A DNA stretch of 40,417 nt from Candidatus Woesearchaeota archaeon. Its GTDB lineage: Archaea > Nanobdellota > Nanobdellia > Pacearchaeales > GW2011-AR1. Shown here one piece after another: positions 25,617 through 40,245 of the stretch. The translations under genes and the position numbers were made by a program. Where the stretch lies: assembly GCA_964608525.1 (NCBI GenBank), contig CAZSNJ010000001.1, positions 31,639 through 72,055 on the forward strand. Direction: 5' to 3'. The notes under the pieces were generated by a model that searched no databases, had not been told where the DNA came from, and worked only from the letters and a program-made list of their open reading frames with translations. Position 1 is the stretch's first letter. Each line of letters opens with the position of its first letter.

Positions 25617-26576
25617 ATGAAATTTTCACTGATAATCCCTTTAGCTCCTGAAAGAGGTGCTGAAATAATAGATTCTATTAAAAAATTAAATTACCCTAAA
25701 TCAGATTTCCATATAATTATTGTTAAAGGTAAAAATCCATCTGACAACAGAAACAAAGGAGCAATGAATGCAAAAGGAGAGATAATTGGATTCTTGGATG
25801 ATGATGCAGTAGTTGATGTAGATTTACTAAAAAATGTTGAAGAATTTTTTAAAGAACATCAAAATATAGATATTGTTGGTGGACCTCAATTAACACCCCA
25901 TGACGAAACAGGTTTTGCAAAAATTTCAGGTTATGCTTTAAGTTCTAAGTTTGGAGCGTGGAATTTATCTCAAAGATATTCAAGAAAAAAATTAAATCTA
26001 AATGCCGATGAAGGATCTATTACTTCTGCTAATCTCTTTGTTAAAAAGAATGTTATTGATAAAATAAAATTTGATTCAAATTTATTTCCTGGAGAAGACC
26101 CAAAATTTATTGATGACGCAAAAAAATATGGATTTAATGTTGCATATTCTCCTGACTTAATTATGTATCATAGAAGAAGGCCCAATATTAAAAGTCTTAT
26201 AAAACAAATATTTAATTATGGAAAGGTTAGACCTGCAAAAGAATCTTTTATTAGTACTCTTAAAAAACCATCTTTTCTTATCCCAAGCGTCTTCTTTATT
26301 TATTTATCAATATTAGCAATTTCTATCTTAGTAAATCCGACAATTACTGGAGGAGCTATTGGAATTGGAAAGAATACTAATTACTTATCTCTAAACTTCT
26401 TATTATTTGTTCCCTTGTTTTTTTATATTCTTTTAAGTTTAGGATTCTCAATATATGATTCAATAAAGAATAAGGCTTATAAAGCAACTTTATTTTTGCC
26501 TTTTATCTATCCTATGATTCATATTAGTTATGGAGCTGGAATGATTTATGGATATCTTAAGAAATTGAAAAAATAA
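25617..26576 (+). CDS. GT2 glycosyltransferase with C-terminal TM helices
   Basis: Blocks FSLIIPLAPERG, NKGAMNAKGEIIGFLDDDAVVD and PGEDPKF, followed by a hydrophobic C-terminal third. Confidence 0.8.
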   Translation: MKFSLIIPLAPERGAEIIDSIKKLNYPKSDFHIIIVKGKNPSDNRNKGAMNAKGEIIGFLDDDAVVDVDLLKNVEEFFKEHQNIDIVGGPQLTPHDETGFAKISGYALSSKFGAWNLSQRYSRKKLNLNADEGSITSANLFVKKNVIDKIKFDSNLFPGEDPKFIDDAKKYGFNVAYSPDLIMYHRRRPNIKSLIKQIFNYGKVRPAKESFISTLKKPSFLIPSVFFIYLSILAISILVNPTITGGAIGIGKNTNYLSLNFLLFVPLFFYILLSLGFSIYDSIKNKAYKATLFLPFIYPMIHISYGAGMIYGYLKKLKK

Positions 26577-26581: not shown

Positions 26582-27754
26582 CTATTTTTTAAATAAAATT
26601 CTTCCATCTATTTTAAATTGATGCTTTAATTGCATTAATTGCAAGAGTGTTGGAAATAGATCCTCCATTTTTGCTTGTTTTGTAAATTTTTTATTCATTG
26701 TAAAAAAAGCTATTTCATTTTTATCAGAAAGATCATATCCATGCATCCCTTTAACAGGAGAATTATTAAAAAAATTTGGATATAGAAGAGTTCCTGAATT
26801 TAATAGAAAAATTTCATCCCCATAGAGATTATTATTAAAATCAATTTTTAAATTCTTTTTATCTTGTTTTGATAATATCTTTCCATAATCCTCGTGTTCT
26901 TCTAAAATAGATAAAACTTGTTTTTTTATGTCTTTATTAAAAAACCAAAATCTAGCCATTGTAGATTCTAAAAAATATACATAATCTTTTCCAAATTCTG
27001 GAAGTTTTGATTGTAAATCTAATATTTTGTTTACTGAAACCATTCCATGATCGGACCATATTAAAATATTATCTTTTTCTAAATCAAAATTAAACAAAAT
27101 CTCCTTAACTAAATTATCTGTTTTTTGTAAAGTTCTTCTTATCTCATCAGATTTTGGTCCAAATTTATGCCCTATTGGATCAAGATCAGTTAAGTGAATA
27201 TAATTAAAAGAATTTTTATTAATAAGTTTTAAGAATTTTTTTACCCTAGTTTCATCATTATTTTTAAATGTATAATGAAGTCTTGATTTCCCATTTTCAA
27301 TAATAAAAGGAAAATCATAAAAAAGATATTTAATTTTATTTTTTTTAAAAATACTAAATAATGTCTCGTTAGAATCTTGTTGGAAAAAATGTTTTTTCTG
27401 TTTTAGTTTAAAATATTTAAGATAATCCATATTTATTGCAGGATAAGACATATCATTACCAATTAAATGATTAAAAAAATTTATTATATGAAATTTTAAT
27501 TTTCTTGGAAATGGGAATAATAATATGGAATACGGAAATTTTCTTACTTTTCCATCATAAATATAATTAGTAAACAAACCTAATTTTCTTGGATGCATTC
27601 CTGTATAAAAACCAACTGTATTTTTAAATCCAAAATGTTGAAATAACTGTCCAACCCCATATCTCTTAGTTAAATTATATAAAAAAGGGGTATCAGAAGA
27701 TGTAATATAATCTCTTCTAAAAGCATCGAGCATTAAAACAATAGTTCTTGTCAT
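26582..27754 (-). CDS. alkaline-phosphatase superfamily protein, NPP / type I phosphodiesterase-like
   Basis: Blocks IVLMLDAFRRDYI (DGFR.DY-like), HLTDLDPIGHKFGP and WSDHGM are metal-site blocks of the nucleotide pyrophosphatase/phosphodiesterase family. Confidence 0.8.
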   Translation of the reverse strand: MTRTIVLMLDAFRRDYITSSDTPFLYNLTKRYGVGQLFQHFGFKNTVGFYTGMHPRKLGLFTNYIYDGKVRKFPYSILLFPFPRKLKFHIINFFNHLIGNDMSYPAINMDYLKYFKLKQKKHFFQQDSNETLFSIFKKNKIKYLFYDFPFIIENGKSRLHYTFKNNDETRVKKFLKLINKNSFNYIHLTDLDPIGHKFGPKSDEIRRTLQKTDNLVKEILFNFDLEKDNILIWSDHGMVSVNKILDLQSKLPEFGKDYVYFLESTMARFWFFNKDIKKQVLSILEEHEDYGKILSKQDKKNLKIDFNNNLYGDEIFLLNSGTLLYPNFFNNSPVKGMHGYDLSDKNEIAFFTMNKKFTKQAKMEDLFPTLLQLMQLKHQFKIDGRILFKK

Positions 27755-27786
27755 TATTTCTTAAGAAAATTTGGTTTTAAAAAATT

Positions 27787-29181
27787 ATGTTTTTAGAGAT
27801 AATAAACATTATAAAGGCAATTAATTTTTCTAGAATTACATTGAAAATAGAATATACAAAAAATAAAAGCAAATTAGTAGAAAAATATCTAAAAGAAAAA
27901 ATTGAGATAATTGTTGATACAATTCGTAAAAGAATCCCGGATACAATAAGTATTATTATGGGAGGAGGTTTTGGCAAAGGGGAAGGAAGCGTGGTTGTAA
28001 AAAACAAAGAAGTTATACTAATAAATGATTTCGATATGTATGTTGTTGCAAAAAAAGAATATAATGAAGACATAATAAATGATATTGCACAAGAAGCATC
28101 AAGAAAGATAGGGAAAAAGGGAATTAGCTCTTTTATAAAATTCAATAAAAACAGGCCTCTTTTAAAAGATTTTTTTTATATTGATTTAAAAGTTATTCCA
28201 TATGACTATTTAAAGAAATTACCCCCAATGGTAAAATATTATGATTTAAGAAATTCAAGTAAAATAGTTTATGGAAAAAATACTCTAAATGAAATACCTG
28301 ATTTTAAACCAAATAATCTTCCAGTAGCCGAAGGTGCAAGACTCTTATTAAATAGGATGAGTCATTTAGTCCAACATTTTTATTCTTCATTTTTTACAAA
28401 AAATGTAAGAGAATGTGATCATCAAATATTTTTATTACACACAATCAAAACCTATACAGATGCTTGTGGTGCTTTACTGATATTGTCTAAAAAATATGAA
28501 CCAACTTATAGTAAAAGGGTTGATGTTTTCAAAAAAACATATTTAAAAGATTTTCCTGAATTAAAAAAACTTATTCCAGAGTATGTTGAAAAAATAAAAG
28601 AATTTACAGAACTTAAAATTAATTTTAATTTAGGTGCTTATAAGAAAAAAGATCTAGAATTATGGAAACAATCAAGAAATTATATTGGTATTTCTACTAA
28701 ATATTTTTTTGAGAAATTTTTAGGTAAAAAAATAAATAATTACTATGATTTATCAAAAGCAATAGAAAAATCAGCAATAAAATATTATAATCCTTATATT
28801 AAATATATTTTAAAAAGAAAGTTTAAATTAAATATTAATAACAAATATATTCTTGGTCTTGGTTCAATTGTAGCACATATTTACATGAATTTTCTATATT
28901 TTAATCGTATGAAAGAAGGACATAATAAACTCTATATTAGAGGTCTATTTCGAATAAAACCTCCTGAATTAACATTTTTCTCAGCATTACCTTTGATATT
29001 GTTTAGTTTAAAGCATAATGGAAAAGTTAATTTAAAGATGTTAGAAGATGGAAAAAGAATATTACAAAAAGTATATCCTGTAAATGTAAAAAATGAAGGA
29101 GATGATTTAAAATATTGGGAAGATATTGCGAGTGTTTATTCTAATGCTTATGTTTTATTTGCATTTTTAAAGTTGAAATAG
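27787..29181 (+). CDS. hypothetical protein with a Pol-beta-superfamily nucleotidyltransferase-like N-terminal motif
   Basis: 464 aa. MGGGFGKGEGS-x12-DFDMYVV fits hG[GS]-x9-13-Dh[DE]h, with a candidate third carboxylate in FYIDLKV. The C-terminal ~300 aa are helical and unrecognised. The start codon is uncertain. Confidence 0.5.
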   Translation: MFLEIINIIKAINFSRITLKIEYTKNKSKLVEKYLKEKIEIIVDTIRKRIPDTISIIMGGGFGKGEGSVVVKNKEVILINDFDMYVVAKKEYNEDIINDIAQEASRKIGKKGISSFIKFNKNRPLLKDFFYIDLKVIPYDYLKKLPPMVKYYDLRNSSKIVYGKNTLNEIPDFKPNNLPVAEGARLLLNRMSHLVQHFYSSFFTKNVRECDHQIFLLHTIKTYTDACGALLILSKKYEPTYSKRVDVFKKTYLKDFPELKKLIPEYVEKIKEFTELKINFNLGAYKKKDLELWKQSRNYIGISTKYFFEKFLGKKINNYYDLSKAIEKSAIKYYNPYIKYILKRKFKLNINNKYILGLGSIVAHIYMNFLYFNRMKEGHNKLYIRGLFRIKPPELTFFSALPLILFSLKHNGKVNLKMLEDGKRILQKVYPVNVKNEGDDLKYWEDIASVYSNAYVLFAFLKLK

Positions 29182-29182: not shown

Positions 29183-30655
29183 TTAATCTATCAACTTCTT
29201 ATAAAAAGAAAGAAATTTATGTTCTATCATTAAATTAAAAAAATTAAATTTAAATCTTGCTCTTGCAATTGGTTCATAAAGTTTACTTAAAATTTTAATG
29301 GTTTTTTTCACATCTAATAAATTCGATCCTTTTTGATTAAGAAAATAAGATGCAAACTGGATATTAGATAATCTCTTTTTCTCTTTAGAATCTACCCAAG
29401 GAGTTTTTATTTTATCACCACTATATTCTATCCATCCTTCTATTGATTTTGGAGGTATAAATCCAAATTTTCCTAAATTATTATACAAGGGAGTGCCTGG
29501 ATAAGGAGTATAACAATAAACACCATTTATTTCTGCATTAGGATTTTCTTTTAGTAATTTTAAAGCACTATTCAATGTTAATTTTACATCTTCCTTAGTT
29601 TCTGTTGGAAATCCAACTACAAAATTATATCCAGGAGTAATGTTAAATTTTGATATTTTTTTATTTAATTCGAAAACATCTTCAATTTTTTGAGGTTTGT
29701 TTACAAGTTTTAGAATTCTGTTTGATCCACTTTCTACTCCTATTTCTAATCTTTCGAGTCCTGCTTTACTCATTTTTCTAAAATACTTTTCATTCATTCT
29801 TTTTGAAGAAGGTATTTCTAAAGTTCCTTTCCAAATAATATCCATTTTATTAATAATTATATTATCTGCAATTTTTTCCATTCTATCAAGATTAACAAAT
29901 AGATTATCGTCCAGAAAATCAAAATATCTTATATTATGTTTATGATATAATACAGATATTACTTTAAATGCATTTTCAGCGCTTAATGTTCTCCAACGAC
30001 TTTTATTAAAAATAGAATTATAGCAATAAGTACAAGAAAAAGGACAACCGCGAGATAACTGGACATGTAAACTTCTTCTTCCTTTATATTTCCCAGTATA
30101 TTTTTCTAAATCAATTAAATTATAAGGAATTTCAGGTAATGTATTCAAATCAATAAAACCTCTTTCAGGATTATTAATTATTTTGCCATTATCTTTAAAT
30201 GAAATTCCCTTTACAGATTTTAAACTTTTATTTTTCTCTAAATTATTAATTAATTCTTTAAAAGTTTCTTCGCCTTCTCCTCTAACAACAATATCTACAT
30301 TTTTATTTTTTAGAACATTATGAGAATCTAGAGTTGGATGAATTCCTCCCCAAACAACAGGGTAATTTCCTTTGCTTTTAATTCTTTTACTAATATCTAG
30401 TGCATAATAAAGTTGTTCTCCTGTCATTGAAGTTAAACCAATACATATAGGATTTTTTTCAAGTAATTTATCAATTTCCTTTTCCCAATCAGTATGAATT
30501 CTCTGATCAAAGATTATCACTTCATAATCCTTATTAATCATTGATGCAACATATAATAAAGCTAAAGGAATTGCATAATTAGTTTTAACACTATCTAAAT
30601 AACCTACTTTAGGCTGTATTAATATTACTATATTCTTCCTTGTTTTTTTAACCAT
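29183..30655 (-). CDS. B12-binding-domain radical SAM enzyme (class B-like)
   Basis: N-terminal Rossmann-like cobalamin-domain pattern (IVILIQPK...ICIGLTSMTGEQ...VVWGGIHPT...VVRGEGEE), followed by RGCPFSCTYC (CxxxCxxC). Confidence 0.85.
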   Translation of the reverse strand: MVKKTRKNIVILIQPKVGYLDSVKTNYAIPLALLYVASMINKDYEVIIFDQRIHTDWEKEIDKLLEKNPICIGLTSMTGEQLYYALDISKRIKSKGNYPVVWGGIHPTLDSHNVLKNKNVDIVVRGEGEETFKELINNLEKNKSLKSVKGISFKDNGKIINNPERGFIDLNTLPEIPYNLIDLEKYTGKYKGRRSLHVQLSRGCPFSCTYCYNSIFNKSRWRTLSAENAFKVISVLYHKHNIRYFDFLDDNLFVNLDRMEKIADNIIINKMDIIWKGTLEIPSSKRMNEKYFRKMSKAGLERLEIGVESGSNRILKLVNKPQKIEDVFELNKKISKFNITPGYNFVVGFPTETKEDVKLTLNSALKLLKENPNAEINGVYCYTPYPGTPLYNNLGKFGFIPPKSIEGWIEYSGDKIKTPWVDSKEKKRLSNIQFASYFLNQKGSNLLDVKKTIKILSKLYEPIARARFKFNFFNLMIEHKFLSFYKKLID

Positions 30656-31638
30656 TTTATTTCCTCATAAATACTTAATTTTACAGATTTTGGAGAAAAC
30701 CCGAGTTCTTTTTTTGCGCGAAGTATTGAATAGTTTCTATCTTGAGACATTGAATGAACTCTTTTTCTTGAAATAAAAGGCTGTGTTTTAAAAATTTTTG
30801 CAAGATATTCAAATACATCTCCCATAACTAACATTAAGGGTTTAGGTATTGATAGGATAATTGGCCTTCTTGAAATAATATTATTTTTAATTAAAGAATT
30901 GGTTATCATACTTACTAATTCTCTTTGTTTATAGGGCCTTTCATCAGAAATAATATAGGTTCCAAATACTTTAATATTTTTATTTAAACAACAAATTATT
31001 GCGTCACTCACACTATCAACTGATACTAATATTGTATGAAATTTTCCTCCACTTAATAATGGAACAAATCCTCTTTTAATCATATTTACAAGTTTTACAA
31101 TATCATTTTTTCTATCCCCTTTTCCTATTACCCAAGTAGGTCTTAAAATAAAAATTTTAAGTTTAGATTTATTTGAAATTTCATGAAGAGCTAATTCAGA
31201 TTCCCATTTACTTTTTTCATAAGGGATTATTGGATTAGGTTTATCATTTTCATCCATTATCCCCTCGCAGAATGAACCCATTGCAGCAATACTGCTTAAA
31301 TATATAAATTTTTTAACTTTTGATTCTATACTTGCTTGTGCAATTGTTTTTGTTCCTTCTACATTTACTTTTTGATATAATTTATATGCTTCATCTGAAT
31401 TTTCAGAAACATTACCAACTCCAACTAAATGTATAACCACATCTATTTTTTTTAGATTTTTAACTAATTTATTATAGTCTGTTAGTTCTCCAACAACAAC
31501 TTTACATCCTTTTTTTTCTAATTTTAATTTATCCTTAGAATTTCGAATATAACATTTTAATTTATGCTTCTTTTTTAATAATTTATCTAATAAGTTTAAT
31601 CCAATAAATCCCGTAATACCTGTTATGAAAATTTTCAT
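30628..31638 (-). CDS. NAD-dependent epimerase/dehydratase (extended SDR)
   Basis: MKIFITGITGFIGLNL (GxxGxxG) and PYEKSK (YxxxK). 4-nt ATGA overlap with the upstream gene and a 28-nt overlap with the downstream gene. Confidence 0.85.
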   Translation of the reverse strand: MKIFITGITGFIGLNLLDKLLKKKHKLKCYIRNSKDKLKLEKKGCKVVVGELTDYNKLVKNLKKIDVVIHLVGVGNVSENSDEAYKLYQKVNVEGTKTIAQASIESKVKKFIYLSSIAAMGSFCEGIMDENDKPNPIIPYEKSKWESELALHEISNKSKLKIFILRPTWVIGKGDRKNDIVKLVNMIKRGFVPLLSGGKFHTILVSVDSVSDAIICCLNKNIKVFGTYIISDERPYKQRELVSMITNSLIKNNIISRRPIILSIPKPLMLVMGDVFEYLAKIFKTQPFISRKRVHSMSQDRNYSILRAKKELGFSPKSVKLSIYEEIKWLKKQGRI

Positions 31639-32738
31639 TTAACTAATCCCCCCAGCCCATATAACAATGTTAGATGTAAGTTCTGGGGAATACTTGTATT
31701 TGCTGCAACAGCAAGATAACATCCCTTGCAAGTTGGTAGTGATTTATTTTTCACCTTTTTTCTTATTTCATCTGCTTTTTTAGAAAACCATACTTTTTTA
31801 AAATCAAAATCAACATCATGTAAATTTCCTAATGGAGATTTATCAGCCATCATACAACAAGCCCATACATTTCCATTCGTTGTTATTTGAGTATGATTAA
31901 ATGTTGCATAACAAGGTAATCCATTGCCTTTAATATATTTTTCAATATATATCTTTCTTACAAGATTTGTTAATTTTGTTACATTTTTATTAGTACTATA
32001 AACTCTAAAGACTTTAGCAAGATCTTCTTTTTTTGGTAATATATCTGTATTAATTGTGCCTAATTCATATCTTAATTCAGAAGGCTCCATTATGTAAACA
32101 TCTGGTTTTAATTTATTTACAACATAATCATAAATTTTAGGAACATCATGAACATTCCATTTGCTTACAACAGTATGATAGCATAAATTAGGATGTCCGT
32201 ATTTTTTTTGCAGTCTTCTTATAGCTTTAGTTGTTTCAAGTAATTTTTTCCAATTGCCAGGAATTCCTCTTATCTCATCATGTTTTTCTTCAATATGATC
32301 TAAGGAAATATTTACAGTAAGATTTATATCTTTATTCATTTGTTTGATAAATTTATCTAGAACTTTTTCCACTCTTTCTGGAAAAGTTGCATTTGTACAG
32401 ATTGTTAATATTTTTGGTTTTTTATATTTTTGAATTCCTAAAAGTAATTCATAAGCATCTTTTCTTAAAAACGGCTCTCCTCCAGTAAATACACAAAAAG
32501 TAGAGGGTCCCATTGTTTTCCATGTTTTAAGCCATTGTTCTGTTGTCATTTCTTTTTGTGCCATTTTGGGGTCTTTTCTATATTTTTCCCATATATGACA
32601 GGTTTTGCATCTACTATTACATGCATTGGTTACTGAGAAAACAGAATTTGAAGGCATCATCTTAGGAAAGCCAAATGCTCTAAATCCCTTATAGCCCATA
32701 ATCTGAAAAGCATATTTTAAATAATCTATTGGTTTCAT
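31635..32738 (-). CDS. radical SAM enzyme with a Cys-rich SPASM/twitch-like C-terminus
   Basis: VTNACNSRCKTCHIW (CxxxCxxC) and FTGGEPFL. C-terminal cysteines lie in PCYATF...VWACCMM...PTCKGCYLA. Confidence 0.8.
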   Translation of the reverse strand: MKPIDYLKYAFQIMGYKGFRAFGFPKMMPSNSVFSVTNACNSRCKTCHIWEKYRKDPKMAQKEMTTEQWLKTWKTMGPSTFCVFTGGEPFLRKDAYELLLGIQKYKKPKILTICTNATFPERVEKVLDKFIKQMNKDINLTVNISLDHIEEKHDEIRGIPGNWKKLLETTKAIRRLQKKYGHPNLCYHTVVSKWNVHDVPKIYDYVVNKLKPDVYIMEPSELRYELGTINTDILPKKEDLAKVFRVYSTNKNVTKLTNLVRKIYIEKYIKGNGLPCYATFNHTQITTNGNVWACCMMADKSPLGNLHDVDFDFKKVWFSKKADEIRKKVKNKSLPTCKGCYLAVAANTSIPQNLHLTLLYGLGGLVK

Positions 32739-32785
32739 TTTAATATTTAATTTATATTCTCTTTAATAAACTTTTGTTAGGAATG

Positions 32786-34420
32786 TTATAGTCTTATATT
32801 AGATTCATAAATAATTAAAACTGGTTGATTATCTTTTTCATAAGCTTTAATTGGGACCCACATATCTTGATTTTCCTGCGGATAAGTATATGCCCATTGA
32901 GGATAGGGCTCAAATATAGAGATCATTAAAAATCTTGGCTTTAATTCTTGTATTTGTACTTCAAAATCAGATAAATTCCTAGATAAAGTATATGTATCTC
33001 TTTCTGAATAATATTGTACCTGAGGTTGAGAATCACTTAAGATTACATCTTGTGGATTTGAATTTTCTTTTAACCAAATTCCTGCTTGTTGGACTTCTAA
33101 ATAAGATGTTTTTTTCAAATCAATTAAACTATTTCCAAATTTAATATTTGGAATTAATAACAAACTCAAAATTATCAATATTATTAAAATTATACTAAAT
33201 TCCTTTAATTTAAATTTTTTAATTAAAAAAGATTCTAGAATTACAAAAGGAGAAAATGCAATTAAAAATAAAAAGGGTAATGTCTGCATCATATATCTTT
33301 GTTCTAAATGAGGTGCAATATATCCTAAAAACATAAGTGCAAAAGCAACCCATAAGAAAATAAAAAATTTCTTTTGTACAATTTCATCCTTAAAAATTTT
33401 ATCAAATCCTAAGAATAAGTCAATAAAAAAATAGAAAAAACCAATTATAAATAAAAAATAAATTGGACTTAAAGCAAATAATGAACTATAACCTGCTCCA
33501 TTTCCATCAAGTATATAAGGAAGATTTTTAATATAAACAAAGACAGTTTTAAATCCTCCAACACCTGCAACTTCCCCTGTTTTAGATACATCTGATAACT
33601 GGTCAATTCCAAGATGATAAGTTACAAGATCTACTAATGGATTTCCATAATGTTGAGAATGAAGAATCATCTGGGGAGTTATAATCAAAGCAAATATTCC
33701 AAGAGTTATCCATAATTGCTTATTTCTTATAAATCTAAATTTTTCCTTTACAAAAAAGAATATTAAGAAAACAGGTACAAACATTAAATATTGCATTCTT
33801 GTTAGAATTGCAAGTGCAAAAAATGCTCCAAAAAGATAAAGAAATTTATTTCCTTTTTTAAGAACATAACCTTTCCAGAAAAAAAGTAATGAAGTTAAAA
33901 GAAAAAAAGTTGCAGGAATTGAAGTTAATGGTCTTGCACTAAAAAATAAAAAGATCCATGAGAAACTTAAACCTAAACTTGTTAAAAGAGCTAATTTTTT
34001 ATTAAACATATCTTTTATTAAAAAATAAGAGGCAGCTACAATTCCTGTTGAAAATAAAACCTCTGACAATCTTAAACCTACTTCTCCGAGTCCTAATTTG
34101 AAAAATATTGCACTAAAAAACGGCCAAAAAAATCCTCTTCTATAATACCATGTATCTCTTATATCAAGTCCTAAACCAAATCTTTTTGCAGTTGACAAAT
34201 AATCTCCTGCATCCCACCAGATGGGTTGATTCATTGTTTTAAAAAATATCCAAAGCCTTATTAAAAAAGCTGCTGTTAAAATTATTAAAAAAGTTTTATC
34301 ATAATTATCTGTTATCCAGTTAAATAAAACTCCTTTTCTTTTTTCTATATCTTCCATAAATAAATTAAGATTATATTGGTTTTTATTTGTTATTATTTTG
34401 TACTTTCCACTCTTTTCCAT
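32786..34420 (-). CDS. GT-C fold glycosyltransferase (PMT_2/ArnT-like, GT39/GT83-type)
   Basis: 544 aa with about 12 TM helices. The first extracytoplasmic loop carries an acidic motif (IWWDAGDYLSTAKR). Soluble C-terminal domain. Confidence 0.75.
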   Translation of the reverse strand: MEKSGKYKIITNKNQYNLNLFMEDIEKRKGVLFNWITDNYDKTFLIILTAAFLIRLWIFFKTMNQPIWWDAGDYLSTAKRFGLGLDIRDTWYYRRGFFWPFFSAIFFKLGLGEVGLRLSEVLFSTGIVAASYFLIKDMFNKKLALLTSLGLSFSWIFLFFSARPLTSIPATFFLLTSLLFFWKGYVLKKGNKFLYLFGAFFALAILTRMQYLMFVPVFLIFFFVKEKFRFIRNKQLWITLGIFALIITPQMILHSQHYGNPLVDLVTYHLGIDQLSDVSKTGEVAGVGGFKTVFVYIKNLPYILDGNGAGYSSLFALSPIYFLFIIGFFYFFIDLFLGFDKIFKDEIVQKKFFIFLWVAFALMFLGYIAPHLEQRYMMQTLPFLFLIAFSPFVILESFLIKKFKLKEFSIILIILIILSLLLIPNIKFGNSLIDLKKTSYLEVQQAGIWLKENSNPQDVILSDSQPQVQYYSERDTYTLSRNLSDFEVQIQELKPRFLMISIFEPYPQWAYTYPQENQDMWVPIKAYEKDNQPVLIIYESNIRL

Positions 34421-35271
34421 GCATCTGAATATTTTCTATTTTTTAATTTACTATTATAAAATAAATTTAACCATATATACAGTCTAACTGGAAAAAGGAA
34501 TAATGTCCAAAGGAATTCTTTTAAATTTTGAGGATAATAAAATAACTTAAAACTATCAAAAACTTCATTTGCAAAAGTTTTCATTCTAGGAATTTTTGTA
34601 GGACTTATATATTTACCAAGTGTATCATGTGATGCTGCAGCTCTTATTTTTTGCTTAATAAAATCATTAAATTTACTTGGATATTTAACATAAACTTCTG
34701 AATTGTGAGCATATTTTATTTGATAGTTTTTTAAATAAAACATCACAGGAACAATAGTATCTTCTGCAATATCTATTGGAAATTTTTTAATTACCTTATT
34801 TCTAAACGCCCATAGATATCCTGAACATTCTAAAAATTTATTTTTTTTAGCTCTTTTTTTTCTTAATTCATGTGCTCCTGCATCAACTAAAATATGTGAC
34901 CAATAACCTAGAATAGTATTTCTTGGTTCAGTTGAAATAGGTCTTCCACTAACACAACCAACTGTTTTATCTTTGAAATATTTTAAAATTTCATTTACAG
35001 AATTTTGAGATACAAATACATCACCATCAGTTAAAACTATTATTTCTCCTTTTATATTTTTTAAAAGAGAATTAAGTGCATATGACTTTCCCTTGCCTTT
35101 ATCCTTAAAAAGTTTAACTTTTTTATATTTTTTAACAACATTTTGAGTTTCTTTATCTGGACTTGACACTATTAATTCATATTTTTCTTTAATATTCTGC
35201 TGTAAAAATGATTCTATTGCTTTTCCAATTGTATATGACTCATTAAATGAAGTAATTATTATTGATATCAT
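34393..35271 (-). CDS. GT2 glycosyltransferase
   Basis: ISIIITSFNESYTIGKAIESF and IVLTDGDVFV (DxD). First gene of the minus-strand operon, with a 28-nt overlap with the GT-C gene. Confidence 0.8.
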   Translation of the reverse strand: MISIIITSFNESYTIGKAIESFLQQNIKEKYELIVSSPDKETQNVVKKYKKVKLFKDKGKGKSYALNSLLKNIKGEIIVLTDGDVFVSQNSVNEILKYFKDKTVGCVSGRPISTEPRNTILGYWSHILVDAGAHELRKKRAKKNKFLECSGYLWAFRNKVIKKFPIDIAEDTIVPVMFYLKNYQIKYAHNSEVYVKYPSKFNDFIKQKIRAAASHDTLGKYISPTKIPRMKTFANEVFDSFKLFYYPQNLKEFLWTLFLFPVRLYIWLNLFYNSKLKNRKYSDAWKRVESTK

Positions 35272-35291: not shown

Positions 35292-35305
35292 GTTTTTAAA
35301 ATTTT
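35292..35305 (-). promoter_or_regulatory. BRE/TATA-like box, leaderless geometry
   Basis: The minus strand reads aaaattttaaaaac. Its 3' end (35292) is exactly 21 nt from the A of the ATG at 35271. Confidence 0.4.
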
Positions 35306-35396: not shown

Positions 35397-35468
35397 AATA
35401 CTCAAATTTCAGACTCAAAACAAACTTTCTGTTTGTTTAAAAAAGTTATGAAAGGAGGTAAAAATAAG

Positions 35469-36062
35469 ATGAAAAAAGATAATAAAAAGAATTCAACAAT
35501 AAACCCCCTTAATAGAAGAAGCTTTATAAAAAGGGTGTCAGGGATTATAGGATTATTAGCTATAAATCCATCAGAAGTTTTTGGCAATACTCTCCCTCAA
35601 TCAGATACTTTAAAAAGAAAAGTTAGAGAAGTACAAAAACTTGTTTATCGTAATAAAGATAATGTAAGAAGAGGTATTAGTTCTACAGTTTATGAAAAAA
35701 CAGTGCCTTTTGATAATACCGAAGTAAAAATATTTTATTCTGAAAATGACCCGGATTGGAATATAATGGGAGTAAGTGGTATTTATATAAGAAAGATGCC
35801 AACGAAAGATCATGATGGATTTGATATTAAGGATGGTGGTGCTGATGGATTAGGAATAAAATTCAGAGATTTGGTAAAAAATACAAAATTTAATGGAAGT
35901 TTAAAACCAATGATTGTAAAAGAGTATGACATTAAAAAACTTGCATATAAGGATATCTTTGAATTAAATAAACAATACGAATCCTTTTTGGATAAAATGT
36001 TGATATCTGGTGGATTGAAAAAAGTAAATTCAACATCAACAATTGATAAAATAATTCAATAA
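35469..36062 (+). CDS. secreted hypothetical protein with a twin-arginine-like signal peptide
   Basis: The ATG at 35469 lies 9 nt after a ggaggt SD (the ORF-track TTG start is 35433). N-terminus MKKDNKKNSTINPLNRRSFIKRVSGIIGLLAINPSEVFG has an RR-x-F-x-K motif, a hydrophobic core and a cleavage-like end. Confidence 0.6.
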   Translation: MKKDNKKNSTINPLNRRSFIKRVSGIIGLLAINPSEVFGNTLPQSDTLKRKVREVQKLVYRNKDNVRRGISSTVYEKTVPFDNTEVKIFYSENDPDWNIMGVSGIYIRKMPTKDHDGFDIKDGGADGLGIKFRDLVKNTKFNGSLKPMIVKEYDIKKLAYKDIFELNKQYESFLDKMLISGGLKKVNSTSTIDKIIQ

Positions 36063-36088: not shown

Positions 36089-36124
36089 AGAGAAACCCTA
36101 AAAAGTTTCTCTTTTTACTTTTTT
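36089..36124. terminator. hairpin plus T-run between convergent genes
   Basis: agagaaac (36089-36096) pairs with gtttctct (36105-36112), giving an 8-bp stem and an 8-nt loop. It is followed by ttttactttttt. Confidence 0.45.
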
Positions 36125-36153: not shown

Positions 36154-37689
36154 TTAAGCTTTATACCTAACTTTATCATACCAAACCTTAAAACTAGATG
36201 GGAAAGAATGATAAATAGGCTTTAGTACTCTTTCTCTAAAAGAATCATAGATTTCTACAAAATATAATATAAAATAAGTAAATCCAACATATCTAAGATT
36301 TTTTCTAATTCTTGTATGACTTAATAACCAATTAATTAAAAAATTAGGCATAGGCCCAAATCTAGTCTTTGTAACAGACCCCCTCATTAAATTAAGAATT
36401 AAAATTGGATAAGCATTTTTACCCTTAAGCTTAATATGCTTTGCTCTATCCCAATAATTAAGCTGATATGCTGCATCTGATTCTTTTTTTATTAATCCAT
36501 CTATTTTTGCTCTAGTATAAAGTTTGGTTCCTGGAAAAAATACTAGATTATTGACTGATAAAAAATACGGTTTTTTTAATTTTTGCAAGAGTCTTATTAA
36601 ATTAATAACATCTTCAGTAGATTCATAGGGATTGCATGTTATAGTATCATACATCACTGCAAGTTTATCTTTATATTTATTAATAATTTTACTTGCTCTG
36701 ATTATTGCCTCGTCTGATTGTGCACGGTGATAAATTTCCTTGTTTGTTCTTTCTGTTCCTTGTATTCCTATAATTATGTCTGTACATCCTGCATCTACAA
36801 GTAATTTAATTTTTTCATCCGTTATTGTTTTTGGATCTGCAAGACACTTAAATCTCATATTTATTTTTTCTTTATATAATTTACAGAATTTCTTTATGTC
36901 ATCTAAACTTCTTAATGAAAAAGTATCATCTCTTATATCAAAATAGCCAAGTGTTGGAAATTTCTTTTTAAGTTCAAGTATTCCATCTATTATGTATTCT
37001 GGAGAATGCCATCTTAAAACTTTTTTTCTCTTTCCCTTATAAAGTTCATTAAAAAGACTATTACTACAATAATCACATCCATAAGGGCAACCACGTCCTG
37101 TTAAGAAAAAAATTTGCCCATCTAAATCATTTTCTTTAAATTTTCTAATTCTAGAATTATCCAAAATATAATGGTCTTTAATATCATAATCAGGAAGAGG
37201 CAATATATCTAGATTATCAATTAAATTCCTTACTGGATTTTTAATTATTTTATTTTCTTTTTTTATCCAAAGATTTTGTATATTATCTATTTTCTTTTTT
37301 TTATCTATCGCATTTGCTAAATCTAAAATTGCGTCTTCTGCTTCTCCAACACAAATAATATCAGAATGTTTTATACAATCTTGTGGAGAAATTGTTGAAT
37401 GAACTCCACCATAAATTATTGGAATATTTAGTCGTCTTTTTAAGAAATTTATTATTCTTGTTGCTCTATTAGCCGTTGATGCAAAAGAATTTATTCCAAT
37501 TAAATCGCTTCCACTACAGATTCTTTCTAATTGCAATAATTCTGATTTTATATAATTTCTTGAATAATCTTCACTTAATTTCATAAAAACTATTTTTACT
37601 TTGTGTCCTTCTCTTTTTAAAACAGCTGAAATTGTTCTTATCCCTTGATCAGACGGGTAGGTTGTAGGAGAGATTAATGTTATCTTCAT
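36154..37689 (-). CDS. B12-binding-domain radical SAM enzyme (class B-like), second copy
   Basis: N-terminal cobalamin-domain-like region (KITLISP...LIGINSFAST...IIYGGVHSTISP...ICVGEAED), followed by GRGCPYGCDYC (CxxxCxxC). Confidence 0.85.
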   Translation of the reverse strand: MKITLISPTTYPSDQGIRTISAVLKREGHKVKIVFMKLSEDYSRNYIKSELLQLERICSGSDLIGINSFASTANRATRIINFLKRRLNIPIIYGGVHSTISPQDCIKHSDIICVGEAEDAILDLANAIDKKKKIDNIQNLWIKKENKIIKNPVRNLIDNLDILPLPDYDIKDHYILDNSRIRKFKENDLDGQIFFLTGRGCPYGCDYCSNSLFNELYKGKRKKVLRWHSPEYIIDGILELKKKFPTLGYFDIRDDTFSLRSLDDIKKFCKLYKEKINMRFKCLADPKTITDEKIKLLVDAGCTDIIIGIQGTERTNKEIYHRAQSDEAIIRASKIINKYKDKLAVMYDTITCNPYESTEDVINLIRLLQKLKKPYFLSVNNLVFFPGTKLYTRAKIDGLIKKESDAAYQLNYWDRAKHIKLKGKNAYPILILNLMRGSVTKTRFGPMPNFLINWLLSHTRIRKNLRYVGFTYFILYFVEIYDSFRERVLKPIYHSFPSSFKVWYDKVRYKA

Positions 37690-37835: not shown

Positions 37836-38216
37836 ATGAAAAAGATAAAAATAACTAAGGATGAGAAAGAACTAGAAGGGGAAATAAAAAAGGGAAATGT
37901 GACCTTATTTGGAAATTCGGCACATATTCCTTTTAGTAAGAAACATCTAGCAAAAAAAGTTTCAGTAATAATTCCTAGTAATCCTAGATATATTTGGTTA
38001 TTAACAGAATCTGAAAAAAGAAAATTAATTAATATAGCGTCTAAAGTAGTTAAAAAAGAAAATGGAAAACTAGAACATTATAGGCAAGGATTAATTAAGG
38101 ATCTTTCAGATGAAAGTTTTAATTTAGATTCTTTAATAAAGATTATTTCTCTTTTAGAATTAAAAGAAAAAGAAATAAAATTAGTAAAAAGAATTAAAAA
38201 ACTATATAATATATAA
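37836..38216 (+). CDS. hypothetical protein with an AbrB/SpoVT-like (DUF2080-type) N-terminal signature
   Basis: NVTLFGNSAHIPFSKKHLAKKVSVIIP resembles the swapped-hairpin GNS.H.P...GK.V.V pattern of small archaeal proteins. This is from memory and not verified. The C-terminal half is helical. Confidence 0.5.
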   Translation: MKKIKITKDEKELEGEIKKGNVTLFGNSAHIPFSKKHLAKKVSVIIPSNPRYIWLLTESEKRKLINIASKVVKKENGKLEHYRQGLIKDLSDESFNLDSLIKIISLLELKEKEIKLVKRIKKLYNI

Positions 38217-38300
38217 GATGGTGTGGACTGATTTTATAACAAATCATACAACAGGAATTGCATGGACTTTAATAATTGCAGTTCTATTTTATAGGTTTAT

Positions 38301-38573
38301 TTATTTACCTTTAGCTAATGAAGGAAAGTCTTTAGACTCTGAGATAGATAAACAATAATAAAATCTTGTTCTTCTCCAGGGAGAATCCCATCCTAGTAAT
38401 TGTGCTACTTGATGTCTATCTAACTCTATACATTTAATCTCATCAAACTTTAATAATGTATTTAATATTCTAGATATTAAAACTTCATTGACCTTCAATA
38501 TCTTTGCTATTTGTGATCTACTTAAAGGTTTATTACTCTTCTGTAAAACATCAATCACCTCCTGCTGACCCAC
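38301..38573 (-). CDS. winged helix-turn-helix DNA-binding protein
   Basis: 90 aa with a GTG start. QEVIDVLQKSNKPLSRSQIAKILKVNEVLISRILNTLLKFDEIKCIE is a typical wHTH (MarR/ArsR-like) layout. Confidence 0.6.
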   Translation of the reverse strand: MGQQEVIDVLQKSNKPLSRSQIAKILKVNEVLISRILNTLLKFDEIKCIELDRHQVAQLLGWDSPWRRTRFYYCLSISESKDFPSLAKGK

Positions 38574-38590
38574 TTATAAATTACCTCCCA

Positions 38591-38827
38591 TTATATATTA
38601 ACATCTATTGTTTGTCTATTTAGTTTACCTAAGTTAATATTAACATATTGAGAATTAGAATCTAAACAATTACATTGACTAAAACCATGTCTCTCCATTC
38701 CATAGATTATTGCATCTTGTTTTATAAGATTAATGTTATTTATAAGAATTACAATTAGTAAAACTAATAAACAGATTAATATAAATACTACTAACAAAAT
38801 TAAATATTCTCTTTTATCTTTATCCAT
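38591..38827 (-). CDS. small membrane-anchored protein
   Basis: 78 aa with an N-terminal TM helix (YLILLVVFILICLLVLLIVILI) and a C-terminal region with QCNCLD. Confidence 0.45.
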   Translation of the reverse strand: MDKDKREYLILLVVFILICLLVLLIVILINNINLIKQDAIIYGMERHGFSQCNCLDSNSQYVNINLGKLNRQTIDVNI

Positions 38828-38828
38828 A

Positions 38829-38972
38829 TTATCTAGTTAAAAACCTCCATATTATTTTTAATACTATGTAAATTCCCATTATCCAAACAAACCACATATA
38901 GTCTTTAGATCCTATCCAAAAGAATCCTGCAACTAAAGTAACTATGATAAAATCTTTACTTAGTCCCAGCAT
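38829..38972 (-). CDS. very small two-TM ORF
   Basis: Hand-translated 47 aa: MLGLSKDFIIVTLVAGFFWIGSKDYMWFVWIMGIYIVLKIIWRFLTR. Its stop lies 1 nt before the next ATG. Confidence 0.3.
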   Translation of the reverse strand: MLGLSKDFIIVTLVAGFFWIGSKDYMWFVWIMGIYIVLKIIWRFLTR

Positions 38973-39126
38973 CTTTTTTGTCCTCTGGTTTTTTTGTTAA
39001 TGCTTCAATCATTCCTCTTCCAAAAGAATCATCTATTTGAGCATAATTAATTCCAATTGAAGCATTACACATTTCTATGAAATCTCTTTCTGAATGTCTG
39101 CCCTCATTAAATCTTGTCATTTCCAT
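38956..39126 (-). CDS. very small ORF
   Basis: Hand-translated 56 aa: MEMTRFNEGRHSERDFIEMCNASIGINYAQIDDSFGRGMIEALTKKPEDKKDAGTK. It overlaps the start of the downstream 47-aa ORF. Confidence 0.3.
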   Translation of the reverse strand: MEMTRFNEGRHSERDFIEMCNASIGINYAQIDDSFGRGMIEALTKKPEDKKDAGTK

Positions 39127-39181
39127 AAAAATATGTCCCTTAAGAACCTTATAATGTTTTTGGTATGATGCAATTATAGAA

Positions 39182-39595
39182 TTACGACAGCTTTTGTTGT
39201 TTAACAGAACATAAAATTTCAGGGGCTTTGCAGTAGCTCATGGGGGGCTTGAAACCTGCAATGTTCTCTGTAGAAATTTCAGGGATATATTTCTTCGGAT
39301 TAGAAACTTGAAAAGCAATCGGATAATCTCCTGACTCAAGATATGGAACAACTTCATTTTTTTTGTAACAAATATCCTTTTTTGTTTTATTCCAAATATC
39401 ATTTGCTGTCCCAATTAATACCTTACCAACAATAAACTCCCCTATTAATTTCTTGTTTGGAGCTGTCGCATAAAGAATAATTTTATCACCTACATTTATT
39501 TTGCTTTTTCTTCTCCTATATTCCCACATTGATTTTCCATTTAGAAGATTTAAACCATACTCTTCTTTAATGCTCATTACATAAATATTCATCAT
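39182..39595 (-). CDS. ASCH (PUA-like) domain protein
   Basis: SIKEEYGLNLLNGKSMWEYRRRKSKINVGDKIILYATAPNKKLIGEFIVGKV matches the ASCH pattern (SI.P.Y...I..G.K..E.R....GD....Y.....I.G). Confidence 0.65.
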   Translation of the reverse strand: MMNIYVMSIKEEYGLNLLNGKSMWEYRRRKSKINVGDKIILYATAPNKKLIGEFIVGKVLIGTANDIWNKTKKDICYKKNEVVPYLESGDYPIAFQVSNPKKYIPEISTENIAGFKPPMSYCKAPEILCSVKQQKLS

Positions 39596-39649
39596 AATAA
39601 CTTAAAATTTAGATTATATAAAAAACTTCTTCTTTTAAAAAAAGAAGCA

Positions 39650-39885
39650 AAAGCGAGTCTGCCACCCCCAAAAGATTATTTCTATTTTCTTTTTTGCACC
39701 GAAGGTGTACCTCTTCGAGGCAGAAAAAAAGAAACAAAAAGGCGACGACAAACCCCTAATAAAAATAATAAAATAGTCCCGACGACTTTGAGTTTTCCCT
39801 TCGGCATCGTTGCACTAAAACTCAATCCCTAACGAAGAGTTTAACAGCGATTAAAAGATTACGAAGCCTTGCAGGCCCTCACTTT
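39650..39885. ncRNA. candidate structured RNA, block A (class and strand unresolved)
   Basis: No ORF and locally GC-enriched. Stems: tctgcc 39658-63 with ggcaga 39719-24; cacc-gaa-ggtg 39697-707; cctc-ttc-gagg 39710-20; 9-bp ttgagtttt 39788-96 with aaaactcaa 39817-25; gcct-tgc-aggc 39866-76. T-runs lie at both ends. Confidence 0.4.
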
Positions 39886-40013
39886 TTCTTAGAAGACTTT
39901 TTCTTCTTAGCTAATTTTTTAAGTTTTTCAACTTTACTTTGTTTATTCCTTTTTCTAGAAGATCTACATTGTTTTTTAACAACTTTCTTTTTTATTTGTT
40001 TTTTCTTTACCAT
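39879..40013 (-). CDS. 44-aa polybasic ORF (possibly spurious)
   Basis: Hand-translated: MVKKKQIKKKVVKKQCRSSRKRNKQSKVEKLKKLAKKKKSSKKK. It lies in the AT-rich spacer between the two structured blocks. A/T-run composition alone could generate it. Confidence 0.25.
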   Translation of the reverse strand: MVKKKQIKKKVVKKQCRSSRKRNKQSKVEKLKKLAKKKKSSKKK

Positions 40014-40024
40014 TTTTTTAAATT

Positions 40025-40245
40025 AAAGGGCTCGGTGAGGAAGTGCCACAAACAATGACTGAATTAATCCTAATCTACCAGTTTGTTTTAATGGTTATCT
40101 CCCTCGCACTGTAAGAAGCTTAAAGAGTACAGATTTCATATGGCGAGTTATAGCCCTTCCACCACATTAATAGCCAAATACTCAACAGAGGCTGAACAGT
40201 TGCATCCTTTTCAAGGACAACCGATAGTTAATTCAGTCAACAATA
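40025..40245. ncRNA. candidate structured RNA, block B (class unresolved, minus strand slightly favoured)
   Basis: No ORF and GC-enriched. Stems: ctcgc 40103-07 with gcgag 40143-47, enclosing ctgta 40109-13 with tacag 40128-32; gttg 40198-201 with caac 40219-22, enclosing tcctt-ttc-aagga 40205-17; acca 40077-80 with tggt 40092-95. Confidence 0.4.
40056..40239. repeat. perfect 12-bp inverted repeat bounding a 160-bp core, flanked by ACAA direct repeats
   Basis: tgactgaattaa at 40056-40067 is the exact reverse complement of ttaattcagtca at 40228-40239. acaa occurs immediately outside both arms, at 40052-55 and 40240-43. Confidence 0.6.

Follow-up and report, generated by a model that had tools for sequence, protein, structure and literature searches.

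The closest described counterparts of the locus examined here, a string of five minus-strand genes encoding two glycosyltransferases, two radical S-adenosylmethionine (SAM) enzymes, and a short-chain dehydrogenase/reductase (SDR), are lipid-carrier glycosylation systems. The locus lies in a 40,417-nt stretch of DNA, called the window below, from Candidatus Woesearchaeota archaeon (assembly GCA_964608525.1, contig CAZSNJ010000001.1, positions 31,639–72,055). Its likeness to AglD/AglR/AglS of Haloferax volcanii, ArnC/ArnE-F/ArnT, GtrA/B/C, and CsbB/YfhO consists in a family 2 glycosyltransferase (GT2) of the cytoplasmic face, a flippase-type protein, and a polytopic GT-C enzyme with an acidic first external loop, found here in a glycan island near AglB. 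For Archaea, the logic of GT2, flippase, and GT-C is documented by AglD, AglR, and AglS (PMC3871713). The window differs from these systems in that the GT2 of the string is not of the DPM1/ArnC/GtrB type, the flippase-like protein belongs to PF03706 and not to Wzx, GtrA, or ArnE/F, the GT-C appears exchangeable between lineages, and the conserved part is a core of GT2, radical SAM, and SDR genes. Compared with the Arn pathway in particular, none of the scanned window genes qualifies as ArnC, ArnA, or ArnB. To our knowledge, no lipid-carrier GT-C glycosylation system contains radical SAM enzymes.

Other counterparts share superfamilies or single enzymes with the locus. HpnA/HpnI/HpnJ/HpnL and the calditol synthase Cds resemble it in combining a Glyco_tranf_2_3-type GT2, a B12 or other radical SAM enzyme (there one for lipid-linked sugars), an HpnA-like SDR, and a PF03706 protein. 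In the Hpn pathway, the glucosamine of bacteriohopanetetrol is converted to a cyclitol ether, with HpnI, HpnK, and HpnJ acting in hopanoids (PMC13459092). In contrast, the window proteins score 3–16 times below the curated Hpn cut-offs, their host is archaeal, and PMT_2 GT-Cs and Wzx-type flippases are among the neighbours of the module; no HpnK-type deacetylase, squalene, or hopene genes were found. AprD4/AprD3, BtrN/DesII/BlsE/SpeY, and DprE1/DprE2 are alike in the coupling of a radical SAM enzyme to an SDR (through a 4-nt gene overlap in the window), in a twitch-like single auxiliary cluster, and in fold matches. The AprD4-, BtrN-, DesII-, BlsE-, and SpeY-type enzymes, with AprD3, act on soluble antibiotic intermediates, DprE1 is a flavoenzyme, and DprE1/DprE2 epimerise decaprenyl-phosphoryl-ribose. 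GenK, Fom3, TokK, OxsB, BchE, and QCMT/MgmA share a B12-binding domain and a CX3CX2C core with the second radical SAM enzyme of the string (B12a), which scores below every curated cut-off. The tailoring of antibiotic sugars and the modification of lipid cores are familiar roles of radical SAM enzymes; in the literature, no description of such enzymes in a glycosylation cluster that is of DPANN origin or linked to AglB was found, and no described surface-glycosylation system was found that couples radical SAM enzymes to a GT2, a flippase, and a GT-C.

An initial annotation of the five genes, made from the letters of the DNA alone, had proposed an Arn-like operon that makes a radical-SAM-tailored sugar on a lipid carrier and transfers it to the surface, a composition for which it knew of no described archaeal system; the literature search turned up none either. 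That interpretation is partly supported. The most fitting description of the locus is a variant of lipid-carrier surface glycosylation that includes radical SAM enzymes, with a core and a membership that differ from those first proposed. In the best reading, held with a probability of about one half, a lipid-anchored sugar would be tailored by radical chemistry and then exported to the cell surface.

Gene layout and conservation of the core

The window is archaeal by gene content (ribosomal protein S4e, SecY with a Sec61-type plug, aIF-2B, prefoldin, and AglB), its close relatives carry the annotation Candidatus Pacearchaeota, and its host is a marine Pacearchaeota-like DPANN archaeon. An identical gene string occurs on 17 independently assembled contigs, including those of the NCBI metagenome-assembled genome GCA_002688755.1 and Tara Oceans assemblies. 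The list of open reading frames (ORFs) reproduced all five annotated genes to the base: a GT2 (GT2_292; 35271–34393, 292 amino acids), a PMT_2-type GT-C (34420–32786, 544 amino acids), a radical SAM enzyme with a cysteine-rich tail (32738–31635, 367 amino acids), an extended SDR (31638–30628, 336 amino acids), and B12a, a radical SAM enzyme with a B12-binding domain (30655–29183, 490 amino acids). The junctions calculated from these coordinates, a 28-nt overlap, a 47-nt gap, a 4-nt overlap, and a 28-nt overlap, also agreed with the annotation. Each motif quoted in it was present in the translations (CNSRCKTC at residues 40–47 of the tailed radical SAM enzyme, CPFSCTYC at 204–211 of B12a, GITGFIG and YEKSK as the GxxGxxG and YxxxK motifs of the SDR, and TDGD and WWDAGDY), and all five domain assignments, including the twitch-like tail, were confirmed by Pfam above the gathering scores, against which Pfam calls were judged throughout. 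NCBIfam matches were judged against curated cut-offs, and none of the five proteins reaches that of any family, ArnC, ArnA, Hpn, BchE, and Tes included. The two radical SAM genes of the annotation were thus both confirmed, but a third, just upstream (37689–36154), had gone unmentioned. The presence of the genes, their domains, motifs, and linkage, and the conservation and membrane topology reported below are direct observations.

Orthologues of the tailed radical SAM enzyme, referred to here as the twitch enzyme, form a tight group at 55–94% identity, after which identity drops to 41%. Its specific family was inspected in eight independent loci (L005, L089–L092, L173, L174, and L175). All five loci with a close orthologue (L005 and L089–L092) also hold orthologues of the SDR, a nucleotidyltransferase-fold protein, an NPP-type phosphodiesterase, the PF03706 protein, and a second membrane GT2 (GT2_319), and four of these five hold B12 radical SAM enzymes. 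Seven module genes run on one strand in L092, with successive 4-nt overlaps. The twitch enzymes of the other three loci are 38–41% identical to that of the window: L173 (Micrarchaeota) has a GT2 gene followed by the twitch gene, with an HpnA-like SDR nearby; L174 (an unassigned metagenome locus) has a B12 gene, a succession of GT2, twitch, and SDR genes, more B12 genes, and a PMT_2 gene 8.7 kb off; and L175 (an Acidobacteriota bacterium) has two PMT_2 genes before the GT2 and twitch genes, with a B12 radical SAM gene and a Wzx-type Polysacc_synt flippase gene nearby. A GT2 gene adjoins the twitch gene in all eight loci, with an overlap of 4–20 nt in L092, L173, L174, and L175, and in the last three the overlapping gene is of the GT2_292 type (81–89 bits). 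The SDR is linked to the twitch enzyme in seven of the eight, and the 4-nt overlap of their genes is kept in L005, L092, and L174. Outside this family, L006 and L007 carry GT2, PMT_2, radical SAM, and SDR genes in that order beside a B12a orthologue of 47–48% identity, with a radical SAM enzyme of another subfamily.

This comparison alters the limits of the proposed unit. The expected co-occurrence in relatives was borne out for the GT2, radical SAM, SDR, and B12 families, which recur in L174, L006, L007, and, in part, L175, but not for the five-gene unit with its GT-C. No orthologue of the GT-C was detected in any fetched related locus, and four further conserved genes, for the nucleotidyltransferase-fold protein, the phosphodiesterase, the PF03706 protein, and GT2_319, lie outside the annotated coordinates. 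The large membrane proteins of the related loci are mutually unrelated in an all-against-all phmmer comparison; orthology at the GT-C step is therefore not established. The recurrence of GT2, radical SAM, and SDR genes, together with the lack of GT-C orthologues, argues that the evolutionary unit is GT2–twitch radical SAM–SDR, usually with a B12 radical SAM enzyme. By the same comparison, the twitch enzyme is the signature by which the conserved module can be recognised, the succession of GT2, twitch enzyme, and HpnA/OleD-like SDR (with the B12 enzyme) is an old arrangement found in both domains, and the GT-C appears to be a variable, exchangeable, fast-evolving, lineage-specific add-on.

A metagenome scan with the alignment of the twitch enzyme was set aside: a generic TGGEPFL pattern dominated it, so it returned only distant relatives (≤35% identity), with B12 radical SAM enzymes in 6 of 14 loci and otherwise heterogeneous neighbourhoods. 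Among the loci collected, L006, L007, and L008 (Woesearchaeota-like) stand out as glycan or lipid clusters unusually rich in radical SAM genes, of which they have four to six, next to two PMT_2 GT-Cs, one GT2, one SDR, and a DegT aminotransferase. Their radical SAM enzymes include several B12-type paralogues and enzymes of the Zn_ribbon_HMPTM type, the N-terminal domain family of Tes/GDGT-MAS. In L174 and L175, the GT2–radical SAM core is accompanied by DUF362 genes, one with a 4Fe-4S ferredoxin-like part, whose products may be the electron donor for radical SAM enzymes.

Enzyme families of the module

The twitch enzyme (31635–32738) matches the Pfam families Radical_SAM (71.2 bits) and SPASM (40.2 bits, cut-off 21.5), and its best NCBIfam match, "twitch domain rSAM," reaches 97 bits against a cut-off of 170. 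Its alignment contains eight invariant cysteines: C40, C44, and C47 of the CX3CX2C core, and a tail with the pattern C276-X12-G-X4-C294, C295, C337-X2-C340. The full seven-cysteine SPASM motif for two auxiliary clusters is lacking; a tail with five invariant cysteines suffices for a single such cluster, as in twitch domains. An AlphaFold2 model (predicted local distance difference test score, pLDDT, 79.7) was matched by Foldseek best to BlsE and then to SkfB, anSME, SuiB, MoaA, EpeE, DesII, BtrN, and SpeY. With TM-scores of 0.4–0.6 and identities of 11–20%, these model-based matches are generic, though sugar- and cyclitol-acting twitch enzymes are well represented among them. Neither radical SAM enzyme of the string falls into a characterised family outside sugar chemistry, consistent with the role first proposed; every NCBIfam score is far under its cut-off.

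Lipid-core modification of the Tes (GDGT-MAS) or Grs type was considered for the twitch enzyme, as L006 and L007 carry Zn_ribbon_HMPTM radical SAM enzymes, and rejected. Homologues of the window enzyme score 41–48 bits against NF045702 (cut-off 450), Tes is not among the best 25 NCBIfam families of the window enzyme, the Zn_ribbon_HMPTM domain is absent by Pfam, and Foldseek aligns the model with GDGT-MAS (7tom) across 192 columns only. In an amphipathic-helix test, the hydrophobic moments of the conserved helices at the two termini were unremarkable and offered no evidence of membrane binding. PADLOC models for defence systems gave only weak, generic viperin-like and PDC matches, and a defence role was rejected.

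The SDR matches Epimerase at 107.8 bits and 3Beta_HSD at 86.3 bits in Pfam. It is not of the ArnA or nucleoside diphosphate (NDP)-sugar dehydratase type that the Arn analogy would call for: full-length alignments are best to the lipid-associated SDRs HpnA (131.5 bits, cut-off 367.65), OleD (88.9 bits), and SdmB (80.9 bits), whereas GalE (71 bits) and the NDP-sugar/GDP-mannose-dehydratase-type profiles align with the N-terminal half only, and the ArnA-type model PRK11908 (UDP-4-keto-pentose/UDP-xylose synthase) scores 26 bits against a cut-off of 294. HpnA is also the top family for three of the four orthologues tested (those of L174, L173, L089, and L006); in L173, OleD is first and HpnA second. 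These profiles point to an HpnA/OleD/SdmB/3-beta-HSD-like clade, an affinity that would fit a lipid-bound substrate and equally a non-sugar lipid substrate.

B12a, with its N-terminal B12-binding Rossmann domain (64.8 bits, cut-off 32.1) and CX3CX2C Radical_SAM core (82.5 bits), is predicted by domain content to be a class B (cobalamin-type) radical SAM enzyme. It reaches the cut-off of none of the characterised B12 families compared (BchE, HpnJ, HpnR, the MJ_1487 family, ApyD, PhpK, and AprD4), with scores against cut-offs of 162/481 for BchE, 139/750 for ApyD, 139/251 for TIGR04013 (the MJ_1487 family), 126/578 for HpnJ, 71/650 for HpnR, and 42/500 for AprD4; the weak AprD4 match is used here as a mechanistic analogy only, with no claim of membership. 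The leading matches in the PDB are OxsB (61 bits) and QCMT/MgmA (9ccb, 59 bits), followed by CysS, TokK, and AprD4. Structure 9CCB is QCMT/MgmA, and B12 radical SAM enzymes are known to perform methylation, ring contraction, and ring formation (PMC12931638). The sugar methylation initially suggested for B12a is therefore in keeping with its class but not secure, being one possibility among others. Orthologues of B12a are 68–73% identical, and family members at 36–48% identity occur in many archaea and bacteria. Across 80 genomic loci of the family from both domains, a BLASTP test found no consistent linkage to the other four genes; the setting was one of nucleotide-sugar and glycan genes, and the commonest neighbours were GT2 (27 loci), GT4 (19), SPASM-like radical SAM enzymes (19), sugar SDRs (16), methyltransferases (16), DegT aminotransferases (11), sugar NTP-transferases (7), and AsnB (6). 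B12a was rejected as the system-defining gene for this breadth and lack of fixed linkage, and the twitch enzyme served as the diagnostic gene instead. The gene immediately upstream of the string encodes the second B12-domain enzyme (B12b; 36154–37689, minus strand; B12-binding 47.4 bits, Radical_SAM 59.5 bits), with its own TATA-like box 29 nt upstream and a best NCBIfam match to a "lipid biosynthesis B12 rSAM" family of the ladderane type (91 bits, cut-off 360). Related loci hold two to five B12 paralogues, and B12b is possibly part of the same system.

GT2_292 passes the Pfam cut-offs of Glycos_transf_2 (69.9 bits, cut-off 23.3) and Glyco_transf_21 (27.5 bits, cut-off 21.7), matches Glyco_tranf_2_3 at 64.1 bits, and has a DGD motif, a QxxRW-like QKIRA motif, and a hydrophobic C-terminus. 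The strict Arn analogy of the initial annotation breaks down at this enzyme. Its best NCBIfam match is PgaC (62 bits), it has no match to the ArnC model PRK10714 at E ≤ 1e-3, and its family profile scores 86 bits against PcManGT (6yv7) versus 45 for DPMS, 43 for GtrB, and 25–30 for ArnC chains. PcManGT is a cellulose-synthase-like archaeal mannosyltransferase (PDB 6yv7). By these profiles, GT2_292 is a membrane-associated cellulose-synthase-like or PgaC-like enzyme, not one of the ArnC/DPM1 type. A better candidate for the polyprenyl-phosphate sugar synthase that would feed the GT-C is a short DPM1/AglJ/ArnC-like GT2 on the plus strand (22489–23247), which matches AglJ over its full length at 39 bits, ArnC PRK10714 at 35 bits (cut-off 529), and the dolichyl-phosphate (Dol-P) hexose transferase and PpgS models, all below the cut-offs. 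The GT-C itself matches PMT_2 (49.2 bits, cut-off 26.1), has at least eight predicted transmembrane helices and a soluble C-terminal domain of about 125 amino acids, and carries the invariant WWDxxDY motif of its family after the first helix (W68, W69, D70, and Y74) in an acidic first external loop. Its homologues form 1541 representative clusters (best identity 56%); it has no NCBIfam match and no PDB sequence match at E ≤ 0.1.

The additional module genes lie on the other side of B12a. GT2_319 (25617–26576, plus strand), with Glycos_transf_2 and Glyco_tranf_2_3 matches and C-terminal transmembrane helices, has orthologues at 94–104 bits in L005 and L089–L092, and it adjoins the radical SAM gene in the Pacearchaeota-type relatives. 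The phosphodiesterase (26582–27754, minus strand; Phosphodiest 73.5 bits) is a cytoplasmic member of the alkaline-phosphatase superfamily without a transmembrane segment; its nearest solved structures are ENPP4 and other ENPPs, and its orthologues in the same five loci score 99–302 bits. The nucleotidyltransferase-fold protein (27787–29181, plus strand, 464 amino acids) is convergent with B12a. It has no Pfam or NCBIfam match, its profile has no meaningful PDB match, and only 13 clusters of homologues were found, with an invariant GGFG[RK]GEG...NDFD signature and a large helical C-terminal domain. Its AlphaFold2 model (pLDDT 89.8) was matched by Foldseek best to the aminoglycoside O-adenylyltransferases ANT(9) and AadA and to the minimal nucleotidyltransferase MntA, and orthologues occur in all five loci that have a close twitch orthologue. 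The protein represents a new, previously unannotated family with a confident structural model. Taken with its partner, the phosphodiesterase, it suggests that a nucleotidyl or phospho group is attached and processed. The flippase-like protein (21556–22488, plus strand; eight predicted transmembrane helices) matches LPG_synthase_TM (PF03706) at 147 bits and TIGR00374 at 131.9 bits (cut-off 43.2), with HpnL at 37 bits (cut-off 196), weak MprF and GlcN-PG flippase matches, and orthologues in the five loci at 166–234 bits. A transmembrane scan identified GT2_292, GT2_319, the GT-C, and the flippase-like protein as membrane proteins, whereas none of the tailoring enzymes has a transmembrane segment.

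Proposed radical sugar tailoring and its alternatives

We infer each chemical step, the lipid anchor, and the acceptor from this set of genes. GT2 would put a sugar on a membrane-anchored acceptor at the cytoplasmic face, likeliest as a polyprenyl or dolichyl (pyro)phosphate-linked sugar or glycan. The twitch enzyme would then abstract a hydrogen from the sugar to give a keto or ene intermediate, by BtrN-, DesII-, or BlsE-type chemistry, and reduction of that intermediate by the SDR would result in a net epimerisation or deoxygenation, making the pair an oxygen-independent analogue of AprD4/AprD3 or DprE1/DprE2. A C-methyl group could be added, or the ring rearranged, by the B12 enzyme, and in this lineage the nucleotidyltransferase-fold protein and the NPP-type phosphodiesterase might add or process a phospho- or nucleotidyl substituent. 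The PF03706 protein would move the product outward, and the PMT_2-type GT-C would transfer it to a surface acceptor. The module probably builds an unusual surface sugar by uncharacterised chemistry. A wider proposal is put forward tentatively, as a possibility short of an expectation: the GT2–radical SAM–SDR core (with the B12 enzyme) may constitute an undescribed oxygen-independent pathway, common to both domains, that rewrites a lipid-anchored sugar after its attachment to the carrier. A radical epimerisation or deoxygenation might be involved, or else a C-methylation or a contraction of the ring that yields a cyclitol, and in Pacearchaeota the pathway would be extended by the nucleotidyltransferase-fold enzyme and the phosphodiesterase. 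If so, the surface of these host-dependent archaea would bear a unique glycan or glycolipid that requires cobalamin. It is at the cell surface that DPANN archaea, small and host-dependent, meet their hosts, and two to five B12-type genes per locus would imply that they must take up cobalamin from their surroundings or their host. Present in DPANN archaea and one Acidobacteriota bacterium, the core provides a defined, testable gene set for new sugar chemistry.

Several findings weigh against radical tailoring followed by export. Both the GT-C and GT2_292 are without orthologues in the closest module-bearing relatives, so the GT-C step may have no connection with the radical SAM chemistry. In the window, 7 kb separate the flippase-like gene from the five-gene string, which is on the opposite strand, and L173 has no B12 radical SAM gene within 10 kb, which indicates that the B12 step is not obligatory. 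The structural matches of the twitch enzyme are generic and extend to MoaA and the peptide maturases SkfB, anSME, and SuiB, and the SDR is closest to lipid-associated families (HpnA, OleD, and SdmB), not to sugar-nucleotide enzymes. The specific twitch family was inspected in only eight independent loci.

The lipid affinities could instead reflect remodelling of a glycolipid head group, in which GT2 would directly glycosylate a membrane lipid (archaeol or another lipid alcohol), the radical SAM enzymes would turn the hexose into a cyclitol or otherwise modified head group, and the PF03706 protein would flip a product that stays in the membrane instead of passing to a protein or glycan. Conversions of this sort have been proposed for HpnI/HpnK/HpnJ in hopanoids and for the calditol synthase of Sulfolobus. 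DPANN archaea are thought to scavenge host lipids, and such remodelling would make biological sense. The QxxRW-like motif of GT2_292 and its passing of the cut-off of Glyco_transf_21, a family of the ceramide glucosyltransferase type, agree with it, as do the HpnA matches of the SDR and its orthologues, the HpnJ match of B12a, the weak HpnL, MprF, and GlcN-PG flippase matches of the PF03706 protein, and the inclusion of lipid head-group phosphodiesterases in the NPP family (ENPP6/7 matches). Ring contraction by radical SAM enzymes on lipid-linked sugars also has a precedent (PMC13459092). The Hpn scores, however, are far under their cut-offs (HpnA 131/368, HpnJ 126/578, HpnI 19/310, HpnH 58/225, and HpnL 37/196), and the neighbourhoods are rich in GT1, GT4, and nucleotide-sugar genes. 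Moreover, the GT2–radical SAM pair is shared by a bacterium and several archaeal phyla with differing membrane lipids, where it stands beside PMT_2 GT-Cs and a Wzx-type flippase, which points to polyprenyl-linked glycans. Head-group remodelling is, on this evidence, unlikely.

The strict Arn-like scheme retains a rather smaller share of probability. It would have the SDR and radical SAM enzymes tailor a soluble nucleotide sugar, GT2_292 load it onto polyprenyl phosphate as ArnC does, and the GT-C transfer it outside as ArnT does. The GT2 and GT-C genes are adjacent or overlapping, with similar GT2/PMT_2 pairs in L006, L007, and L089; the GT-C matches PMT_2, the Pfam family that includes ArnT; the B12a family occurs in nucleotide-sugar neighbourhoods; and AglD/AglR/AglS supplies an archaeal precedent (PMC3871713). 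Against this scheme, GT2_292 is closer to PcManGT than to any DPMS, GtrB, or ArnC structure, the DPM1/ArnC-like GT2 of the window is another gene (22489–23247), the SDR is far from the ArnA-type model and resembles GDP-mannose dehydratases in its N-terminal half only, and no DegT-type aminotransferase, formyltransferase, or deformylase was found among the scanned ORFs of the window, a few short ORFs lying outside the scan. The overlap of GT2 and twitch genes in three distant lineages further suggests that the radical SAM enzyme acts after the GT2 step, not before it. Least probable is that two unrelated units happen to be adjacent, the GT2 and GT-C being an ordinary lipid-carrier pair and the radical SAM–SDR–B12 trio, with the nucleotidyltransferase-fold protein and the phosphodiesterase, making another product such as a ribosomally synthesised and post-translationally modified peptide (RiPP), a cofactor, or a small metabolite. 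Radical SAM enzymes of the SPASM and B12 kinds typically serve as RiPP maturases, B12a matches ApyD, the fold of the twitch enzyme resembles SkfB, SuiB, and anSME, and close relatives have no orthologue of the GT-C near the trio; the 47-nt gap, described below, would suit such a division. The ApyD match is, however, far from the cut-off of 750, none of the inspected loci has a conserved small ORF for a precursor peptide with the trio, genes for glycosyltransferases, flippases, and sugar enzymes dominate the neighbourhoods, and a GT2 gene stands beside the twitch gene in every one of the eight loci, overlapping it in four.

Glycan island, putative promoters, and flanking sequence

The surface-glycan role first proposed for the string was backed by its setting, with AglB, an AglH-like GT4, the Dol-P-sugar-synthase-like GT2, and the flippase-like gene 7–17 kb away in the window. 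The AglB/STT3 oligosaccharyltransferase (17791–20559, plus strand; STT3 63.9 bits) is followed by a GT4-family, AglH-like polyprenyl-phosphate sugar-1-phosphate transferase (20561–21556, plus strand; Glycos_transf_4 99 bits). Three GT2 genes, the TIGR00374 flippase-like gene, and the PMT_2 GT-C gene fall within 14 kb, each with a role predicted from sequence. By these assignments, the five genes appear to sit in a larger cell-surface glycan island of about 17.8–37.7 kb. Rfam and tRNA scans of the window found nothing.

The promoter box placed by the initial annotation at 35292–35305 was recovered as the TATA-like sequence AAAATTTTAAAAAC (coding strand, minus), which ends 21 nt before the start codon of GT2_292. 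Similar TTTAAAA(A)CC-like boxes lie 27–30 nt before the ATG of other operon-first genes (27754, 37689, 9914, and 14148), and internal genes carry GGAG-like motifs in their place. Leaderless archaeal first genes and internal genes led by Shine–Dalgarno (SD) motifs show this pattern, and the box is plausible as a leaderless archaeal promoter. The 47-nt gap before the twitch gene contains a TATA-like element, TTTATTAAAG, and lacks an SD-like motif, so the five genes may form two transcription units, with the radical SAM–SDR–B12 trio under its own promoter. The start of the GT-C may also differ from that annotated: many homologues begin at window residue 22 (M22, 34357), which would turn the 28-nt overlap with GT2_292 into a 35-nt gap, and the nearest relative has the long MEKS N-terminus too. 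A sigma-70 promoter and terminator scan was uninformative in this AT-rich archaeal DNA (59 sites versus 69 expected from shuffles), and the analysis of TATA positions was used instead.

The nucleotidyltransferase-fold and B12a genes are convergent, with stops at 29181 and 29183, 1 nt apart, so that no terminator fits between them. The phosphodiesterase and nucleotidyltransferase-fold genes diverge from start codons only 32 nt apart (27754–27787), a spacing at which their promoters must overlap coding sequence or one another. Between the five-gene string and B12b lies a plus-strand ORF of 209 amino acids (35433–36062; TTG start; 204 amino acids according to gene callers) with NRRSFIKRVSGIIGLLAINPSEVFG, a signal of the twin-arginine type. 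The ORF lacks matches in Pfam and NCBIfam as well as homologues in any related locus, and it may encode a surface protein exported by the twin-arginine pathway in a DPANN archaeon. It is separated from the convergent B12b gene by a perfect palindromic hairpin (36089–36112; AGAGAAAC...GTTTCTCT) with T-runs on both strands, which looks like a bidirectional terminator. The flank beyond B12b (37836–40417) varies between strains whose contigs are otherwise identical, leading to ribosomal S12/S7 genes in L001 and to small ORFs in L002 and the window; one of the small ORFs has a weak match to DUF2080, a "transposon-encoded" family, and this border is possibly mobile. Towards the other end of the window, an EMC3/TMCO1-like insertase gene of the Oxa1 superfamily (14148–14543, plus strand) directly follows secY at the end of the ribosomal protein cluster.

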